Origin: an uncultured Acidobacteriota bacterium
Lineage (GTDB): Bacteria > Acidobacteriota > Thermoanaerobaculia > Multivoradales > JAHEKO01
Direction: 5' to 3'
Assembly (NCBI GenBank): GCA_963713825.1
Contig: CAVQNG010000001.1
Location: 350,272-414,271 of the forward strand
Length of the DNA: 64,000 nt
This document shows, in pieces, positions 39,375 through 47,009 of this stretch. The position numbers and the translations under genes were made by a program. Numbering within the stretch: position 1 is the first letter of the stretch; every line of letters starts with the position of its first letter. The notes beneath the pieces are model-generated. The model did not search any database. It worked only from the letters and a program-made list of their open reading frames with translations, and was not told the origin of the DNA.

Positions 39375-41759
39375 CTAACTGCGGACACCCAACATGAGAT
39401 AGATCGAAAGGATGATAAAGGCGATGCTGGGGCTCCACACGGCCAACATTGGCGGTAACGCGCCAGTTTCGCCCAAAGTACTACTGAAGGCGAGCAATGC
39501 GAAGAAGACCATACCCAACACGACACCGATACCGACGCCGTAGAGGGTGCCTTTCCGGCCCAGGCGAAACGAGAAAGGCAAAGCAACAAGAGACATGACG
39601 AGCGATGCGAACGGCAGTGACACCTTCTTATGCAGCTCCACCTGCAGCTCGGGGACTGCCTGGCCGCTGCCTTCGAGCTCATCGATGTACTCCTTCAGCT
39701 CGCCGTAGGACATGGCCTTGGGCAGTTTGTACTCCGATTCGAAATAGTCCGGGGTTTCAGGGTAGGCGTCGATCACTGGCTGATCGAAGACCCGAAAGTC
39801 GAGGACCTCGCCGGCATCGAACGACCGCACCCAGCCGTTTTCGAACAGCCAAGCTTCTCCCAGGTACTGAGCAGTCTCCGCAAACAACCGTCGCGTGAAA
39901 CGATCCTCCTCGTTGAACTCGAACACCTGCAAGCGACTCAAGGCCTGAGTCTCGCTATCGTAGCGCAGGTAGTTGTAGATGTAGCGACCCTGGCCGAAGA
40001 GCCACTGTCGATCGGCCCTCCGGTAGGAACGTGCGGCGGTCCTGCCTTTGATGGTGTCGTCCGCCTGAGCCACGCGTGCATTGGCTGCTGGAAGAATCCT
40101 GGCTTCCAAGAAGCCGCAGAATGCCACCACCACCAAAGCCGAGAACAGTGCTGGGACAGCAATTCTGAAGAGGCTGATACCGAGGGCTTTGGTTGCCGTG
40201 ACCTCGTTGGACTTCGAGAGGATTCCGAAAACGATCAGGGTCGTGACGAGGACCGCGATCGGAGCAATCTCGAAAATGATCTGCAGGGTCAAGTACTTGT
40301 AGTAGGTTGCGACGACGCCAATTCCGGGGTCGTTCTTCAGGATGTCGTCCATGCGGTCGGCGATGTCGGCAACGATGTAGACAGCAAGACCCGACAGTAC
40401 GACCAGGGTGAAGACGCTCGTGAAGAGGCGAATGACATATCGATCCAGAATATTCGGGAAGCGAATGCGCAGCCTGGGTAGGCGCAGAACGACATGTGGG
40501 CTCTCGGCAGCGGCCTGAACGACGCCGGAATCAGCATCTGTTGACTCTCGTGCCATGGGAGTCCTGCGGAGCCAGTTCTTGGGACTCAACCATGGGCGTT
40601 TGCGCAGCCATTGATCGATGCCGCCCAACATGAAGGACTTGTCGCTGTTGCGCCGAATCAGGAGGTAAAGGCCGAGAGCACCAAGGACGAAGTTGGGCAG
40701 CCACATGGCGACCCAGGGCTCCAGCTTGCCAACGCGAGCGGCCTCTTCGCCATTGGTCAGCAATATGTAATAGACCATGATGACCCCAATGGACACGGCG
40801 AAGCCGGAGGAGCGACTGCCCCTACCGGTGCTATAGGCCAGAGGCAGAGCGAGCAGGCCGAACACGAAGCATGCTGCTGGAATCGAGAACTTCTTATGGA
40901 TTTCGATCTCAGTAGCGAGGCGGAGCTCCTTGCTCAAGGCGGAGTTAGAGGCTTGCGCTCGAAGCTCCGTGAGAGTCTGCTCGCGGACCCCCTTTGACGT
41001 ATTGGCGGTATTGCGCTGCTGAGAGGTGTACTCGTCGACCAGGACCCGATCGAGACTGGAAATCAGCGTCGTGTGGTACTTCTCGGGCGACCGAAAGTCC
41101 ATTTTGTGGATAACCGCATTCTCCAGGTGTAAGATCAGACGATCTCCGGCTTCGTCGAGCCGAACCTGTCCACGCTCGGCAACCGTTACCTGATTCTCGT
41201 TACTGGGTAGATCCTCCGCAACGAAAACTCCCTCCCAGTATGGGGACTCTTGGGGAGCCTCGAAAATGTAGAGGACAAGGCCCTCCCAGTCCTGGTAGAA
41301 CACCCGCGGCTCGACCTGTCGGGTGACGCTGCTACCCAGAATATCGATCCTCAGGTGTTGGAGGGCGTTGTTTCCCCGCGGCAGAGCTCCGATCATAAGG
41401 ACACCATTGACAACGGTGAGCAAGGCCGAGATCGCCAGCACGGGGCGGGCCAAAGAGAAGAGACTGATCCCGTTGGCGCGCATCGCCACCAATTCGCTGT
41501 CTGCCGCAAGTCGACCGATCGCAACAAGAATCCCAAACAGAAGGGCCATCGGTATGGTCAGGACGACGATGTTGGGAAGAGTGAACAGCAGGAGCTTTCC
41601 AACCTGGGCAGCTGGAACTTCCCGACGGATGATCATGTCCGCCGAACGGAAGAGAAACTGCATCAAGAGCAGAAAGGTATAGACCACGAAGCCGAGGGTG
41701 AGTGGCCCGAGGACTTCACGGAAGACGTACTTGTCGAGCTTGCGCATTCGTAGGGGCAC
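39375..41759 (-). CDS. Fused LptF-LptG LPS export permease
   Basis: Two tandem LptF/G modules (DSELVAMRANG; SNEVTATKALG). Confidence 0.9.
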   Translation of the reverse strand: MPLRMRKLDKYVFREVLGPLTLGFVVYTFLLLMQFLFRSADMIIRREVPAAQVGKLLLFTLPNIVVLTIPMALLFGILVAIGRLAADSELVAMRANGISLFSLARPVLAISALLTVVNGVLMIGALPRGNNALQHLRIDILGSSVTRQVEPRVFYQDWEGLVLYIFEAPQESPYWEGVFVAEDLPSNENQVTVAERGQVRLDEAGDRLILHLENAVIHKMDFRSPEKYHTTLISSLDRVLVDEYTSQQRNTANTSKGVREQTLTELRAQASNSALSKELRLATEIEIHKKFSIPAACFVFGLLALPLAYSTGRGSRSSGFAVSIGVIMVYYILLTNGEEAARVGKLEPWVAMWLPNFVLGALGLYLLIRRNSDKSFMLGGIDQWLRKRPWLSPKNWLRRTPMARESTDADSGVVQAAAESPHVVLRLPRLRIRFPNILDRYVIRLFTSVFTLVVLSGLAVYIVADIADRMDDILKNDPGIGVVATYYKYLTLQIIFEIAPIAVLVTTLIVFGILSKSNEVTATKALGISLFRIAVPALFSALVVVAFCGFLEARILPAANARVAQADDTIKGRTAARSYRRADRQWLFGQGRYIYNYLRYDSETQALSRLQVFEFNEEDRFTRRLFAETAQYLGEAWLFENGWVRSFDAGEVLDFRVFDQPVIDAYPETPDYFESEYKLPKAMSYGELKEYIDELEGSGQAVPELQVELHKKVSLPFASLVMSLVALPFSFRLGRKGTLYGVGIGVVLGMVFFALLAFSSTLGETGALPPMLAVWSPSIAFIILSIYLMLGVRS

Positions 41760-41862
41760 CGTGGCCGATTATACGGTCGAAAGGGTGCCCGCGTCGCAAA
41801 GAAGTCGAGTGCGAGTTATTGAGAAGGAGTGTCAGCTCGGCCTATCAAGGTGCCTACATCCG

Positions 41863-41890
41863 GAGTCCGATAAGATATATTATGTAAACC
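41863..41890 (+). other. dif: dif-like XerC/XerD recombination site
   Basis: GAGTCCGATAA-GATATA-TTATGTAAACC has the 11-6-11 layout of E. coli dif (GGTGCGCATAA-TGTATA-TTATGTTAAAT); AT-rich and intergenic. Confidence 0.85.
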
Positions 41891-41939
41891 TACGCTATAT
41901 AGACTGGCTCAGGAGGCCCTCCTCTGCAGGAGGCGTTCC

Positions 41940-42827
41940 TTACTGCTCCTTCGCTTCTTGCAGCTGGGTAAGGATTTGCTCTAGAGCCTGAATGAGATCC
42001 TGCTTGTCCACCGTGCTCTTGCGAAAGGTCAATGCCAGATTGTAGGTCTTGTCTGGCGACTTGAACCGAAACACATAGGGCTTCTGACGGCCTCTGCTTG
42101 GCGCATTTTGGCCTTGACGCTTGCGGGCTTTCGCCGCCTCCCGCAGATCGTCCCGAGTCAGCCCTCGGCTTGCAACCTCTTCCAATAAGCGGACCATTTC
42201 CCCTTCGTCGCCCCCCGACGCCTTGAGCACCTCCAGAAGAAGAGACTTTGAGAGCAGATCCAGGGCCATGGCGACGGTTCGGGCTTTCGGTGGAATCTGC
42301 AGGAGTCCGAGGCTTTCGGTGACAACGCTTCGAGATTTGCCAACCGCAGCCGCGATCTGCTCGTGCTTGTACCCATACTGTTCAGCCAACCGCCGGTATC
42401 CTTCTCCTTCTTCGAAGGGCGTCAAGTCCTTTCTCTGAAGATTCTCGACCAGGGCGATTTCGAGCGCCTCCTCGTCGTCCAGGTCCATCTCGATAACCGG
42501 CACATCGTAGAGGCCGGCCTCGATTGCGGCCTGGAATCTCCTTTCTCCGGAAACGATCCAGAAGCATTCTTCTTCGTCACTGTCGCCTCCGCGCGGACGC
42601 ACCAATATAGGCTCGAGGACACCCTTGTCGCTAATCGAGGCGGTCAAGTCGGTCAAATCGCCCATCTCCGTTCGTGGCTGCTCCGGATCCGGCATGATCA
42701 GGGCCAAGGGCACCATTCGACCAACCGGCTCGACTTCCCTCGAGGTCAATTCATCAACGAAGTGAGAATCGTGTCGCATCTTGACGCGGCCGGGAAGTCC
42801 CCGCTTCTTGCCCTGGGTTTCAGACAC
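41940..42827 (-). CDS. parB: ParB-family CTPase/DNA-binding protein with divergent HTH
   Basis: QPR, GVLEPILVR, SGERR, ENLQRKDL, GKSRS; GTG start overlaps the parA stop region. Confidence 0.92.
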   Translation of the reverse strand: MSETQGKKRGLPGRVKMRHDSHFVDELTSREVEPVGRMVPLALIMPDPEQPRTEMGDLTDLTASISDKGVLEPILVRPRGGDSDEEECFWIVSGERRFQAAIEAGLYDVPVIEMDLDDEEALEIALVENLQRKDLTPFEEGEGYRRLAEQYGYKHEQIAAAVGKSRSVVTESLGLLQIPPKARTVAMALDLLSKSLLLEVLKASGGDEGEMVRLLEEVASRGLTRDDLREAAKARKRQGQNAPSRGRQKPYVFRFKSPDKTYNLALTFRKSTVDKQDLIQALEQILTQLQEAKEQ

Positions 42828-43578
42828 GGCTGAGGATCTCCTCGGACAACTTGTAGTACTGGAAGGCTCCACTGGACCGAGGGGCGTAAGAGAAGATTGG
42901 TTCCCGGTAGGCAGGGCTCTCCTCGAGCCTGACACTCTTGGAGATTACGGTCTCGAACAACTTGTCTCCAAAGACCTCTTTGACCTGGTCTCGAATGTCC
43001 CGCGACAGAATCGTTCGCCCATCGAAGAGCGTCAAGACTGCTCCCAGTATCTGCAGGCGCCGATTCGCCCGCTGCTTGATCTTGTCGATCGTCTCCAGGA
43101 GATCATCCGTACCTTCGAGAGCGAAGTAACTGGATTGAATCGGAATCAAGACATGGGTTGCGGCCACCATGGCGTTGACGGTGATAATCCCCAAGGCCGG
43201 GGGTGTGTCTATGATGACGTAATCGTATCGGCGACGTACCTTGCTCAGCTTGTCCTTCAATCGATAGTAGCTGTCCAACTCTCCGAGCAACGTGGCCTCG
43301 ATCTTGGCAAGGGCGATGGATGAAGGTGCGACATGCAGATTCGGTACGTGCTCCGCCTCCAAGACGACATCGGCCATGTCGATTGCTGGGTCGGTCAGCA
43401 CGTCGTAAATCGTGCGCTCGAGCTGGTGAATCTCGACGAATGACAGCGAGCTGTTCGCTTGAGGGTCGAGGTCGATGAGCAGGGTCTTCAGCCCCTTCAA
43501 CGCCATCGCCGCGGCCAGATTGATGGCCGTCGTGGTCTTGCCGACTCCGCCCTTCTGATTGGTGATCGCGATGATCAT
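42820..43578 (-). CDS. parA: ParA/Soj ATPase
   Basis: NQKGGVGKTTT, DLDPQAN, DTPP, VRLEESP. Confidence 0.95.
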   Translation of the reverse strand: MIIAITNQKGGVGKTTTAINLAAAMALKGLKTLLIDLDPQANSSLSFVEIHQLERTIYDVLTDPAIDMADVVLEAEHVPNLHVAPSSIALAKIEATLLGELDSYYRLKDKLSKVRRRYDYVIIDTPPALGIITVNAMVAATHVLIPIQSSYFALEGTDDLLETIDKIKQRANRRLQILGAVLTLFDGRTILSRDIRDQVKEVFGDKLFETVISKSVRLEESPAYREPIFSYAPRSSGAFQYYKLSEEILSRV

Positions 43579-43590
43579 GGGATCGGCAGG

Positions 43591-43619
43591 AGTCTATTTG
43601 AACGATTCGAGAGGGTCAA
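43591..43619 (-). promoter_or_regulatory. Sigma70 promoter of parAB (TTGACC-17-TAGACT), nearly leaderless
   Basis: -35 at 43619-43614, -10 at 43596-43591, ATG at 43578. Confidence 0.65.
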
Positions 43620-43670
43620 GTGTGGCATCGCCCTGCTGCTCGAAAGTTGAAGCGAGCACCCTCTTGCAGA

Positions 43671-43692
43671 CAATGTCGGCGCGCCGACATTG
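43671..43692. promoter_or_regulatory. Perfect 22-bp palindrome, candidate parS-like site
   Basis: CAATGTCGGCG|CGCCGACATTG; 16-bp core TGT-N10-ACA as in parS. Confidence 0.55.
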
Positions 43693-43778
43693 GAGCTAAG
43701 TCACTGAAAACAATGCTTTTCATCGTTGAGGTGAAGCGATTGTCAGGTGCTGAGGCAGGGCTGTTGCGAACAGTCTCT

Positions 43779-44291
43779 CTACATCTCGTAGTTGCCCAGA
43801 TCATCGGATGAGGCGTCCTCGAGCCATTTTCTGAGGCGCTCTCTTTCCGATCCGTCTGCTTCGGCATCAGTCCGCTGGGCGGCCTCTAGCACCCTTTCGA
43901 GCACATAGATTGGAGCCTGGGCGCGGAGAGCCAGGGCGATAGCATCGCTCGGTCGCGAATCCAATTCGACGACTTCTCCACTGTCACCGACCTTCAGAAA
44001 AATGGTGGCGAAAAAGGTACTCTCCGCCAGGTCATGAATGAGAACTCTCTCGACCGCAGCCCTGGCAGCCAACAGGACGTCGCCGAGGAGATCATGGGTC
44101 ATGGGACGCGGAACTTCGACTCCTTCAAGGCTGATTGCGATGGCATTGGCTTCGAATGCGCCGATCCAGATTGGAAGCTCAGCTTCACCACCCTCTTCCC
44201 GCAGAATTACGATCGGGGTCTTGGAGGAAGGGTCCATCATCAAACCCTGGACTTCCATTCTTCTCGCAGAACCATCTTTCTCAGTCGCCAT
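43779..44291 (-). CDS. Bifunctional nuclease family protein (DUF151)
   Basis: LPIWIGAFEA, RPMTHDL, DSRPSDAIALALR. Confidence 0.92.
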   Translation of the reverse strand: MATEKDGSARRMEVQGLMMDPSSKTPIVILREEGGEAELPIWIGAFEANAIAISLEGVEVPRPMTHDLLGDVLLAARAAVERVLIHDLAESTFFATIFLKVGDSGEVVELDSRPSDAIALALRAQAPIYVLERVLEAAQRTDAEADGSERERLRKWLEDASSDDLGNYEM

Positions 44292-44375
44292 GAGCAGAAC
44301 CCTCTCGGTCGGTATTCTGCGATCCTCCGTGCACTGCGTCAAGCTCTGCACGGGGCAAGAGATATCCAGCTCGAC

Positions 44376-45707
44376 CTAGGGGAGTTCTGTTTGGCGTCCG
44401 AGGAGGCTGTGGGGATTGGCCTTCTCGATGACAATCGGCGCAATGCTGCCCAGGGGGTGGGTCGCTGGCTCGGCTGGGAAATGGACGATCCTGTGACAAG
44501 CCGTGCGGCCGCTCTGGAGTTGCGGCTGCTCCGACCACCCTGTCACCAGTACGTCCATCTCAGACCCCACCAGCTGTTCGTTCAGGCTGCGCTGAATGGA
44601 TTCCTGTACCTGAAGTAGTTTCTGAAGTCTTCGACTGGCGATACTGTCGTCTACCGGGTCGGGCAGTTGAACCGCTGCAGTCCCTGGTCTCGGGGAGTAC
44701 TTGAATGCATAGATCGACGCGAACCCAGTCTCCTCGACGAGAAGGCGCGTCTGTTCGAAGTCGCCCTCCGTCTCACCCGGGAATCCCACAATGAGATCCG
44801 TGGACAGGGCCAGGTCGGGCCTGGCTTGCCTGAGCTGCCCCACGAGGTCCTTGAAGGCACCGACGGTGTAGCCACGACCCATTCGCTTGAGAATTCGATC
44901 CGAGCCCGATTGGACTGGCAAATGCAGGTAAGGGCAGATGTTGGCATGGCGCGCGAATTGCTCCACCATCCGTGGGCTGAAGTCCCGCGGATACGAGGTT
45001 ACAAAACGCAGCCTCTGGACCCCAGGAATCTTCGCCACGCGGTCCAGGAGATCGGCAAAATCCCAATCACCGTTTGGTTGCCGCCAATGATTGACCGTCT
45101 GTCCCAGGAGCTCGATCTCGAGGAAACCGTAGTCGACAAGATGCTCGACTTCGCTGACGATCTCCTCGATCGGGCGACATCGCTCGGGACCCCGTGTGAA
45201 TGGCACTATGCAGAATGTGCAGTTCTTGTCGCACCCTTCGATCACGGTGACCATGCCCTTGTAGGTCCCGACGCGAGAGATCGAATCGATGTCGAACTGG
45301 CGCTCTGCGGGAAAGCCTGTGGCAACGATTCGCTCGCCGGGCTGCCGGCGGGCGAGAATTTGGGATAGCTCCCCGACTCTGGCAGGCCCGAGCACGAAGT
45401 CCAGATCAGGATTGCGATCGAGAGCCGTCTCCCCCACCTGCTGGGCGACACAGCCACAGAGACCGATGAGCAGTTCTGGGTGGTCAGCTTTGAAGCGGCG
45501 ATACCTGCCGAGTTGAGAGAAGACCTTGTGCTCCGCTTTCTCCCTGACACTGCAGGAGTTCAATAGGATGATGTCGGCATCCTCGACATTGCGGGTCGGC
45601 AGCATGCCGGACTGCATGAGCTGCCCTGCCATACGCTGAGTGTCCAGCTCATTCATCTGGCAGCCCCACGTCTCGATCCAGAATGTCTTTGCTTTGGAAG
45701 ACCTCAC
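44376..45707 (-). CDS. miaB: tRNA methylthiotransferase MiaB
   Basis: GCQMN, NSCSVRE, CDKNCTFC radical SAM motif, TRAM domain. Confidence 0.95.
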   Translation of the reverse strand: MRSSKAKTFWIETWGCQMNELDTQRMAGQLMQSGMLPTRNVEDADIILLNSCSVREKAEHKVFSQLGRYRRFKADHPELLIGLCGCVAQQVGETALDRNPDLDFVLGPARVGELSQILARRQPGERIVATGFPAERQFDIDSISRVGTYKGMVTVIEGCDKNCTFCIVPFTRGPERCRPIEEIVSEVEHLVDYGFLEIELLGQTVNHWRQPNGDWDFADLLDRVAKIPGVQRLRFVTSYPRDFSPRMVEQFARHANICPYLHLPVQSGSDRILKRMGRGYTVGAFKDLVGQLRQARPDLALSTDLIVGFPGETEGDFEQTRLLVEETGFASIYAFKYSPRPGTAAVQLPDPVDDSIASRRLQKLLQVQESIQRSLNEQLVGSEMDVLVTGWSEQPQLQSGRTACHRIVHFPAEPATHPLGSIAPIVIEKANPHSLLGRQTELP

Positions 45708-46651
45708 GCTCCGTCCCCCCCGGGGTCTGGAGCAACCACTGGGTCTGTAATCTCCTCGTCCATCAGGTCCGGTTCACCCGGCCTTGAAATGCCGACCCCC
45801 TCCTCCTCTGCCTGCACTGGCTCCAGCTCGATGCCTTCCCGTAGCCAACCCGGCAAGGCGCCCGCCACTCTGCCTTCCTCCATGAACTCGTCCAACTCCT
45901 GCTGCTTCAGGTCGACTTCCTCCCGAGCACGATTCAACTCTTCGATCGCATGGTCCCATGCAGGCTTGATCTGGGCATCGCGATAGAAGGGATCATCCTC
46001 GGCGTAGAATCTCATTCGTAGATTGAAGACGTCTCCCTCGAGCTCTTCAATCCTTTCGTCAGCTTCCTTCCAGGCCAGTCGAATGTCGTAACCCCGATCA
46101 CGCCAGTAAGCCTCGTCGAGCGCTAGATCCTTCTCGTCTCGAGTCTCCGATCCCAGGCTCTCATTCGTGATCACGGTGGTCGAGCTCTCGGTTTCCGTCA
46201 ACTGCCCAGTCGCATAGTCCGACAGGTTCTTGTCGTTGATGACGATTTGGGTCTTTTGCGTCTCTCCCCGCCGATTCCTCTCCGCTCGCGCGCTCTCCAC
46301 GAGAGTCATCTCCCGCTCCCCGGCCGCCGCCACCTGATCTTCGATCACGATCATCGTGTCGTCTTCTTCCAGCACCACGTCGTCAGCCACAATCGCATCG
46401 TTAGTCACAACCGCATCGTCGCTGCTCGGCTGCTCTTCGCTCTCCTCTTGAACCACCGCTGGCTCGACTTCCTCGTAGACGGGTTCGTCTTCCTCGGTCA
46501 CCACGTATTCCTCGAACTCCGAGTCCTCGAGGGTGGCCTGACTGACGCTTTGTGGTGGCAAGCTGTCGGACTCGGACTGAAGACCCGAGCAAGCTGCCAC
46601 AGAGAGCAAGAGTATTGCTGCTGCAGCGCAATCGATGATGCGGCGGGTCAC
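45704..46651 (-). CDS. Very acidic hypothetical lipoprotein
   Basis: VAAC lipobox, E/D-rich N-half, helical C-half ending LPGWLR. Confidence 0.75.
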   Translation of the reverse strand: MTRRIIDCAAAAILLLSVAACSGLQSESDSLPPQSVSQATLEDSEFEEYVVTEEDEPVYEEVEPAVVQEESEEQPSSDDAVVTNDAIVADDVVLEEDDTMIVIEDQVAAAGEREMTLVESARAERNRRGETQKTQIVINDKNLSDYATGQLTETESSTTVITNESLGSETRDEKDLALDEAYWRDRGYDIRLAWKEADERIEELEGDVFNLRMRFYAEDDPFYRDAQIKPAWDHAIEELNRAREEVDLKQQELDEFMEEGRVAGALPGWLREGIELEPVQAEEEGVGISRPGEPDLMDEEITDPVVAPDPGGDGA

Positions 46652-46655
46652 GCGG

Positions 46656-47009
46656 TCAGCTTCTTCCGTAGCGATCTTCCAAGCGAACGACATCTTCGAG
46701 CTCCGGAGTCGAGACTTCGATAATGTCACAACCCTCCGGTCCGGCCGTCATCCGGTGCTGAGTTCCAGGGTGGACCCTGAAGACCATCCCAGGTCGCACT
46801 GTATGGTGGACGAGCTCGCCGTTCTCCTCGAGCACGAGCTCGTATTCTCCCTGCAGCAAATAGAGAGTCTCGTCCTTCTCTTCATGGTATTGCAGGGAGA
46901 GGGCCTCTCCTGCATTGACATGCAAGATCTTGCCGGCGTACTTCTCGGTATGGGCGAAGATCAATTCGTAGCCCCAAGGTTTGTCGACTGTGCGAACCGC
47001 AGATTCCAT
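46656..47009 (-). CDS. Cupin (mannose-6-phosphate isomerase type II C-terminal-like)
   Basis: KPWGYE, SLQYH..KDE, HR, EVSTPE.DVVRLEDRYGR. Confidence 0.85.
   Translation of the reverse strand: MESAVRTVDKPWGYELIFAHTEKYAGKILHVNAGEALSLQYHEEKDETLYLLQGEYELVLEENGELVHHTVRPGMVFRVHPGTQHRMTAGPEGCDIIEVSTPELEDVVRLEDRYGRS

Follow-up and report, generated by a model that had tools for sequence, protein, structure and literature searches.

A candidate second ParABS system beside dif at the replication terminus of Acidobacteriota chromosomes

The window analysed here is a stretch of 64,000 nt from contig C1 of an uncultured Acidobacteriota bacterium of the class Thermoanaerobaculia (assembly GCA_963713825.1). 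Directly beside a dif-like site it carries the genes parA2 and parB2 and an upstream palindrome, parS2, which together resemble a ParABS chromosome partition system. The same genome encodes a canonical system, parAB1-parS, near its replication origin. Judged from sequence, parAB2 and parS2 would form a second, orthogonal ParABS located at the terminus, a 'terminus centromere' that positions or segregates dif, and we slightly favour this interpretation. A broader proposal, for which we see an even chance, is that many Acidobacteriota actively segregate both ends of the replication map. In this case dif would be held at the septum and the sister termini then split by an ATP/CTP-driven counterpart of MatP/matS with the new centromere TGTCGGCNNGCCGACA, probably a domesticated partition cassette inserted at dif. 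The starting point was a sequence-only reading of the window by a model. Each attempt at refuting it that could be run on sequence favoured a second, terminus-linked ParAB. The elements are located as follows; dif, parB2, parA2 and the palindrome (window 41864-43692) all lie where this reading had placed them.

39375-41759, minus strand: fused lptF/lptG, 794 aa, two LptF_LptG domains (Pfam); conserved neighbour on the far side of dif.
41831, no strand: GC-skew switch point, the peak of cumulative G-C over the whole 414-kb contig C1.
41864-41891, no strand: dif-like Xer site, 28-mer (11-6-11), region AGTCCGATAA G/ATATA/ TTATGTAAACCT; 48 bp past the parB2 stop.
41940-42827, minus strand: parB2, 295 aa, GTG start, Pfam ParB_N and HTH_ParB; stop codon at 41940-41942.
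42820-43578, minus strand: parA2, 252 aa, deviant Walker-A ATPase of the ParA/Soj type with KGGVGKT; Pfam AAA_31 (1e-59) and CbiA.
43619-43591, minus strand: sigma-70-like promoter match TTGACC-17-TAGACT between parS2 and the parA2 start (consensus match only).
43671-43692, no strand: parS2, a perfect 22-bp palindrome with the conserved 16-bp core TGTCGGCGCGCCGACA at 43674-43689.
43779-44351, minus strand: bfn (bifunctional-nuclease domain), conserved upstream neighbour.
44376-45707, minus strand: miaB, conserved upstream neighbour.

GC skew on C1 is positive over ~390 kb and negative in the last 22 kb, with the best single breakpoint at 42100. Cumulative G-C over the entire contig peaks at window position 41831. 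Because the dif-like site is only 35 bp away from it, the locus is assigned to the terminus, and its proposed location there rather than at oriC was borne out by skew mapping. Contig C3 confirms the sign convention for this genome, since its cumulative G-C is lowest at about 800-810 kb, the position of dnaA (812,042). General properties of dif sites, as given in the accessible part of one source (PMC3025954), were used to judge the 28-mer. This putative dif has the 28-bp 11-6-11 architecture and lies at the skew shift. It is present in single copy: No further match with up to 6 mismatches was found in the whole 5.4-Mb genome, and neither a second dif-like site (up to 10 mismatches) nor a lone arm in the 64-kb window. 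The genome encodes XerD (364 bits, above the cut-off), an XerC-like gene and FtsK with its gamma domain. A search for MatP (PF06303), positive in the E. coli control, found none in this genome (96% complete).

The association of dif with parAB2 is also found in relatives. The order-level sample comprises 40 genomes, from which 30 parAB2 loci were fetched; together with phylum-level loci, 56 loci were available. In 41 of these 56, dif is located within the 1.5-kb flank of parAB2. Among the order-level loci, dif was detected in 23 of 30, mostly less than 100 bp beyond the parB2 stop; in the window, where the sequence-only reading had seen it close behind this stop, the distance is 48 bp. In family f14, the distance between dif and parB2 is 0.9-6 kb. 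The consensus of the dif family is GTCCGATAA-GATATA-TTATGTAAAC. Its arms are at least 90% conserved and its centre is variable, as expected of an Xer site. Neither dif nor parS2 was found at any of 20 origin (parB1) loci.

The separate canonical parAB/parS at oriC, for which the sequence-only reading called, exists, so that parAB2 is not the sole parAB of this genome. It is located on C3 near dnaA, at the skew minimum, where yidC, jag, two near-canonical parS sites, rsmG, parA1 and parB1 are clustered:

C3 835,277 and 835,313: parS pair, near-canonical.
C3 836,223-836,987: parA1, origin cluster.
C3 836,984-837,838: parB1, N-terminus MTRKKRGLGRGLDALL.

The parAB1-parS cluster is 24 kb away from dnaA. 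The genome contains exactly two ParB_N genes. ParB2 shares 40% identity with ParB1 and ParA2 44% with ParA1. The lack of a canonical parS, originally noticed for the window, extends to the entire contig C1 at up to 2 mismatches; the only two such sites in the genome are those on C3 beside parAB1. At the same threshold, none of the 56 parAB2 loci has a canonical parS.

Five carrier genomes consist of a single contig (G031, G109, G128, G145, G275). In all five, the dif beside parB2 is 0.417-0.497 of the chromosome away from dnaA and parB1 is located 6-25 kb from dnaA. This means, parAB1 is the origin-proximal copy and parAB2 does not share the origin proximity of canonical ParABS. All five also carry the complete block miaB-bfn-[parS2]-parA2-parB2-dif-lptFG. 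Skew in 20-kb windows flips its sign across parB2 in G109, G145 and G031, and in G031 a local cumulative maximum is 73 bp away from dif.

ParB2 orthologues with 53-81% identity are present in 37 of the 40 relatives and cover 12 families of the order. The same relatives have a second, canonical ParB with about 35-49% identity to the ParB2 query. The three relatives without a ParB2-class match are 91%, 70% and 62% complete. In the relative G011, only a 69-residue C-terminal ParB2 fragment was found. parA2 lies directly upstream of parB2 in all 30 order-level loci and is likewise always adjacent in the loci from other classes. For the phylum, 251 Acidobacteriota genomes with a completeness of at least 90% were searched. 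A ParB2-class match was obtained in 145 of them, with a clear score gap (at least 141 bits vs at most 119 bits for canonical ParB). In family f54, seven genomes at first sight had ParB2 only; a family search of five of them yielded two ParB_N genes in each, with ParB1 ~3 kb from dnaA. In G183, an extra truncated ParB2-like copy (C5:1606328-1606774; residues 2-149, 59% identity) is present besides the full one. In a maximum-likelihood tree of 65 ParB2 and 21 ParB1 sequences, ParB1 and ParB2 are split with an SH-aLRT (Shimodaira-Hasegawa-like approximate likelihood ratio test) support of 100. Thus, the suggested ParB tree gave ParB2 a clade of its own, and the suggested linkage of dif, parAB2 and palindrome was recovered in relatives from the order and a large part of the phylum. 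Identity of ParB2 drops with taxonomic distance, from 81% in the genus to 53-68% in family and order and 38-52% in the phylum. Plasmid ParBs are at most 36% identical to ParB2, below the 40% of its own ParB1. The top clusters in a protein atlas are dominated by Acidobacteriota; an Elusimicrobiota cluster without helix-turn-helix (HTH) domain at rank 18 is a lead only. A scan of public contigs returned only Acidobacteriota records, and the genome searches covered Acidobacteriota alone.

The order-level consensus of parS2 is TGTCGGCNNGCCGACA. It is found upstream of parA2 in all 28 order-level loci for which upstream sequence was available (27 exact, one with one mismatch). The 5.4-Mb genome lacks a second exact copy. 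Two one-mismatch copies, TGTCGGCGCGCCGAAA, at G000:C5:355925 and G000:C32:12658 have identical flanks and are probably repeated sequence. In the phylum sample, 108 of 251 genomes contain the exact pattern, compared to 9 of 251 for the reversed-pattern control. It is present in 107 of 145 ParB2-positive but only in 1 of 106 ParB2-negative genomes. Since these genomes are related, a Fisher test exaggerates the significance, and the comparison is carried by the counts and not by a P value. Four of the genomes counted are unpublished, G006 (locus L027; part of the order-level counts and of alignments A1 and A2), G062, G182 and G087; no conclusion depends on these four by themselves, and when they are omitted, the values are 105/143 and 1/105. 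Wherever positions were listed, parS2 is on the parB2 contig. It is this comparative evidence that makes parS2 the putative cognate centromere of ParB2.

The position of parS2 relative to the genes varies between lineages. In several other classes it is located within parB2, ~520-540 bp from the gene start, and its codons specify C-R-x-A-D right before the SKSxLL helix. B. subtilis spo0J also contains a parS inside the gene, which parS2 within parB2 resembles. Examples are L039:3541, L058:2020 and G145:C1:928746. In family f14, no parS2 (up to 2 mismatches) was found within about 10 kb of parAB2 in four of four genomes. Instead, the fetched stretches of all four contain a single parS2 in a syntenic AT-rich spacer 44-51 kb upstream of parAB2. 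These spacers (L113-L116; G106, G118, G094, G078) share a parS2-flanking motif (…CCGGTTTTTCGGATCGGAAAA…). In some genomes with several copies, these lie close together. All five parS2 sites of G145 (complete, 6.49 Mb) are located within 130 kb (875,554-1,005,002) around dif at 928,246, and all four of G189 within 53 kb around parB2. G025 has three sites inside 260 bp and one elsewhere. Across lineages, parS2 can sit at the promoter, within coding sequence or in a remote spacer, but it does not leave the terminus region; on sequence grounds it is therefore a putative chromosomal address under selection and not merely an operator. The latter also follows from f14, where the only site is 44-51 kb away from the genes.

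In the window, the 200-bp gap between bfn and parA2 houses the palindrome and the promoter-like match. An intrinsic terminator of bfn was considered as another explanation for the palindrome. It was rejected, because no T-run follows the palindrome on the minus strand; in addition, a terminator scan gave no call. From its GTG start, parB2 overlaps the end of parA2 by 8 nt, and four orthologues have ATG at this alignment position.

Both proteins have the properties expected of a partition pair, a ParA with KGGxGKT and a ParB with the ParB_N CTPase fold and an HTH. KGGVGKT is invariant in 25 ParA2 orthologues, and ParA2 has no N-terminal HTH. The CTPase motifs GERR and ENLQR are invariant in 25 aligned ParB2 orthologues. 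ParB2 passes the ParB model TIGR00180 with 136.8 bits (cut-off 58.45). Its profile matches solved structures of chromosomal ParBs with 1e-52 to 1e-39, Noc with 1e-44 and KorB with 1e-23. An AlphaFold2 model of ParB2 (predicted local distance difference test score 82.8) is best superimposed on the Caulobacter ParB-parS complex (template modelling score 0.83, root mean square deviation 3.1 Å), with Myxococcus ParB and Noc as the further fold matches.

For ParB, the available text of Jalal et al. (PMC7383237) lists eight residues in contact with parS: Q162, G170, K171, S172, R173, N178, G201 and R204. These positions were transferred to ParB1 by a constant offset of 22. The ParB2 class retains G170, K171, S172 and R173 and replaces the other four (Q162H in 89%, N178E in 100%, G201S in 95% and R204L in 86%). 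The differences from the usual motif in the HTH region, first noticed in the window, are therefore real and hold throughout the class. In the same text, R173 and G201 are described as conserved across all ParB orthologues, and R173 as contacting the G within the outer TGT of parS (PMC7383237). The ParB2 class has neither a canonical parS nor the complete set of conserved contacts; R173 is kept. parS2 retains the outer TGT/ACA including the G contacted by R173, and its inner bases differ. We infer that the retained R173 contact would pair with the retained outer base. At its N-terminus, ParB2 has RGLPxxVKMRHDxHFVEEL in place of RGLGRGLDALL, a conserved variant that contains a 9-residue insert. 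In canonical ParB, the corresponding region binds ParA, as stated in the accessible part of PMC12462528. A predicted complex of two ParA2, ATP and ParB2 residues 1-48 scored 0.25 (mark 0.32), which is evidence neither way.

ParB paralogues with altered HTH residues are known in other roles (PMC7383237, available part). Accordingly, ParB2 might be a site-specific regulator of the Noc or KorB kind that, instead of segregating DNA, controls division in the manner of nucleoid occlusion or represses transcription of its own operon. The single parS2 beside a promoter-like element in the window and the matches to Noc and KorB in the fold and profile searches would suit such a role. We consider it improbable. 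ParB2 stays far below the cut-off of the Noc model TIGR04285 (129.4 vs 315 bits). Noc is not known to have a dedicated ParA partner, whereas parB2 is always accompanied by its own parA2. A parS2 inside the coding region, as in other classes, or 44-51 kb off with none by the promoter, as in f14, speaks against an operator, and so do up to five sites over 130 kb around dif.

The terminus centromere interpretation, slightly favoured above, can be put into steps. The biochemical and cell-biological events in the following scheme are extrapolated from what was observed, i.e. anatomy, location, conservation and co-occurrence. parS2 would serve as the loading site of ParB2 dimers, which would act as CTP-dependent clamps and spread over a few kb that include dif. 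Nucleoid-bound ParA2-ATP would be stimulated only by the variant N-terminal peptide of ParB2. Since ParA2 would answer to this peptide alone, no cross-talk between the two systems is proposed. The unreplicated terminus might be held by the ParA2 gradient at mid-nucleoid, which is the future septum, much as a single-copy plasmid is. Once the terminus is replicated, the gradient could drive the sister dif regions apart. This separation would align dif with FtsK/XerCD and clear the division plane.

A terminus organiser could also work without ParA-driven transport. ParB2-parS2 would then act locally at dif and ParA2 would only regulate the complex. The complex might bring the two sister dif sites together so that XerCD can synapse them, block the path of FtsK or mark its landing site, or load or unload SMC (structural maintenance of chromosomes) complexes at the terminus. 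Several findings would fit: parS2 and dif are 1.8 kb apart in the window and ParB clamps usually spread well beyond this distance; dif is close to parB2 in most loci; the CTPase motifs are intact and the Xer recombinase genes and FtsK-gamma are encoded. Nevertheless, we regard this alternative as rather unlikely. No part of the module is better conserved than ParA2 (58-97% identity among 24 orthologues), which is never found apart from parB2; this argues for an active role of the ATPase. Furthermore, the only exact parS2 in f14 is about 45-55 kb away from dif, so that a strictly local action on dif is unlikely in this family.

A number of observations weigh against a dedicated terminus centromere. 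No ParB2 is found in 106 of the 251 genomes, which have canonical ParB only or nothing; consequently, the function is dispensable in the phylum. The exact parS2 pattern is missing in 38 of the 145 ParB2-positive genomes, and 15 of the 56 loci have no dif within the 1.5-kb flank. Among the order-level loci with dif, the orientation of this asymmetric site to parB2 is the same as in the window in 16 of 23 and flipped in 7, namely L011, L015, L016, L017, L026, L027 and L030. In two of the five single-contig genomes (G128, G275), the 20-kb skew windows do not flip across parB2. The lone parS2 of this genome, ~55 bp upstream of the promoter-like site, would on its own fit simple autoregulation. Finally, the parAB2 cassette slots exactly between bfn and dif, as an old Xer-mediated insertion would leave it.

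The last point concerns the origin of the cassette. Upstream, the neighbour is bfn in 25 of 30 loci at order level and 25 of 26 at phylum level; downstream, within short flanks, lptFG was found in 22 of 30 and 9 of 26, respectively. In three of four ParB2-negative complete genomes, bfn is directly followed by a dif-like site, and the miaB-bfn locus of such genomes is 0.34-0.48 of the chromosome away from dnaA. As the same arrangement is found at the terminus also without ParB2, miaB-bfn-dif is a terminus landmark across the phylum. The arrangement miaB-bfn-dif, often followed by lptFG, is seen in loci L109, L111 and L112. A role of bfn as a component of the parAB2 system was considered and is unsupported, because miaB-bfn is present at the terminus of ParB2-negative genomes, too. 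The exact fit of the cassette between bfn and dif, together with the bfn-dif arrangement of ParB2-negative genomes, makes an ancient Xer-type insertion possible. The pattern would fit either such an insertion, later kept, or precise losses. The sequence-only reading had taken the flanking core genes as an argument against a mobile origin. This stands in so far as the core flanks are conserved; the exact slot leaves room for the ancient insertion.

A further alternative is a plasmid-like element integrated at dif by Xer, now domesticated or an inert remnant without a present role at the terminus. The precedent are integrative mobile elements exploiting Xer recombination (IMEX), such as the gonococcal genetic island, where parA/parB homologues lie beside dif. 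The precise bfn/dif slot, with miaB-bfn-dif in three of the four ParB2-negative complete genomes, would agree with such a history. We consider the remnant very improbable. IMEX are bracketed by two dif-like sites and patchily distributed among close relatives, and neither was found for parAB2; the window has no second site or lone arm at the threshold given above. Core genes are present on both sides, and the whole block from miaB to lptFG is intact in five of five complete genomes. The identity of ParB2 falls with taxonomic distance, and plasmid ParBs are no closer to it than its own ParB1. Moreover, parS2 sites tens of kb beyond the cassette are impossible for a 1.8-kb element.

Compared to known systems, the putative terminus centromere combines familiar parts in a different place. 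With canonical ParABS (Soj/Spo0J) it shares the parA-parB operon, a type Ib ParA, the ParB architecture of CTPase domain, HTH and C-terminal domain, and a 16-bp palindromic centromere with TGT...ACA ends, in some lineages inside parB. It differs by its location at the terminus beside dif, by the changed inner 10 bp of the site, by the replacement of four of eight contact residues and by sharing the chromosome with a canonical copy. Noc sites avoid the terminus, whereas parS2 sites are found only there; in addition, ParB2 has its own ParA. Like ParB2, Noc of Firmicutes with its Noc-binding site (NBS) is a paralogue beside ParB whose DNA specificity was shifted by substitutions in the HTH region, but ParB2 keeps R173 and changes Q162, N178, G201 and R204, a different set from that of Noc (PMC7383237).

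MatP/matS of E. coli and ZapT of Caulobacter are, in the accessible literature, also sequence-specific systems confined to the region around dif and thought to coordinate terminus and division. They belong to unrelated protein families, have no ATPase motor and act by passive divisome anchoring. Vibrio cholerae ParAB2/parS2 and type Ib plasmid systems are described in the excerpts available as orthogonal ParA/ParB pairs with their own centromere in the same cell as the main system. They serve the origin of a separate replicon, whereas here, unlike in multipartite genomes, a single chromosome carries both systems, one at each pole of its replication map. IMEX resemble parAB2 in having partition-type genes right beside dif; in contrast to them, parAB2 has no second dif and no mobility genes, and its flanks are conserved phylum-wide.

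A literature search, which covered few subscription journals and no supplements, yielded no terminus-linked ParABS, no Acidobacteriota ParB paralogue and neither the 16-mer nor a 14-mer of parS2. The accessible part of a 2025 census of ParB folds (PMC12704722) has nothing on a terminus ParABS or a parS2 motif. Reviews, as far as accessible, assign ParABS to the region near the origin and treat the segregation of the terminus as a step of its own (PMC7333895). If the proposal is true, the ParA ratchet would also be usable for the locus replicated last, a single chromosome could be served by two orthogonal ParABS, and ParB specificity in nature would have taken a third route of diversification next to parS and NBS. 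In contrast to what is proposed for parAB2, the terminus organisers known so far are passive DNA-binding proteins of unrelated families. Taken together, the analysis suggests that these Acidobacteriota actively position the chromosome end. ParB2/parS2 would also provide a ready-made orthogonal ParB/parS pair for locus labelling, and parAB2 a sequence-level handle on the cell-cycle biology of a poorly studied, environmentally abundant phylum.

DNA sequencing runs containing the window stretch are sediment, marine and salt-marsh metagenomes. Contigs of two metatranscriptomic libraries match pieces of parA2 and parB2, and one 627-nt contig spans the parA2/parB2 junction. This is a weak hint that parAB2 is expressed, as these are contigs only and DNA carry-over is possible; stretches of the locus without a contig carry no information. 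Upstream of miaB, at window 45704-46729, a very acidic (E/D-rich) protein of 341 aa is encoded, which is kept in close relatives (matches in L034 and L038). The ParB2-negative complete genome G147 has two full-length dnaA-like genes at C1:39439 and 3513465, ~126 kb apart.

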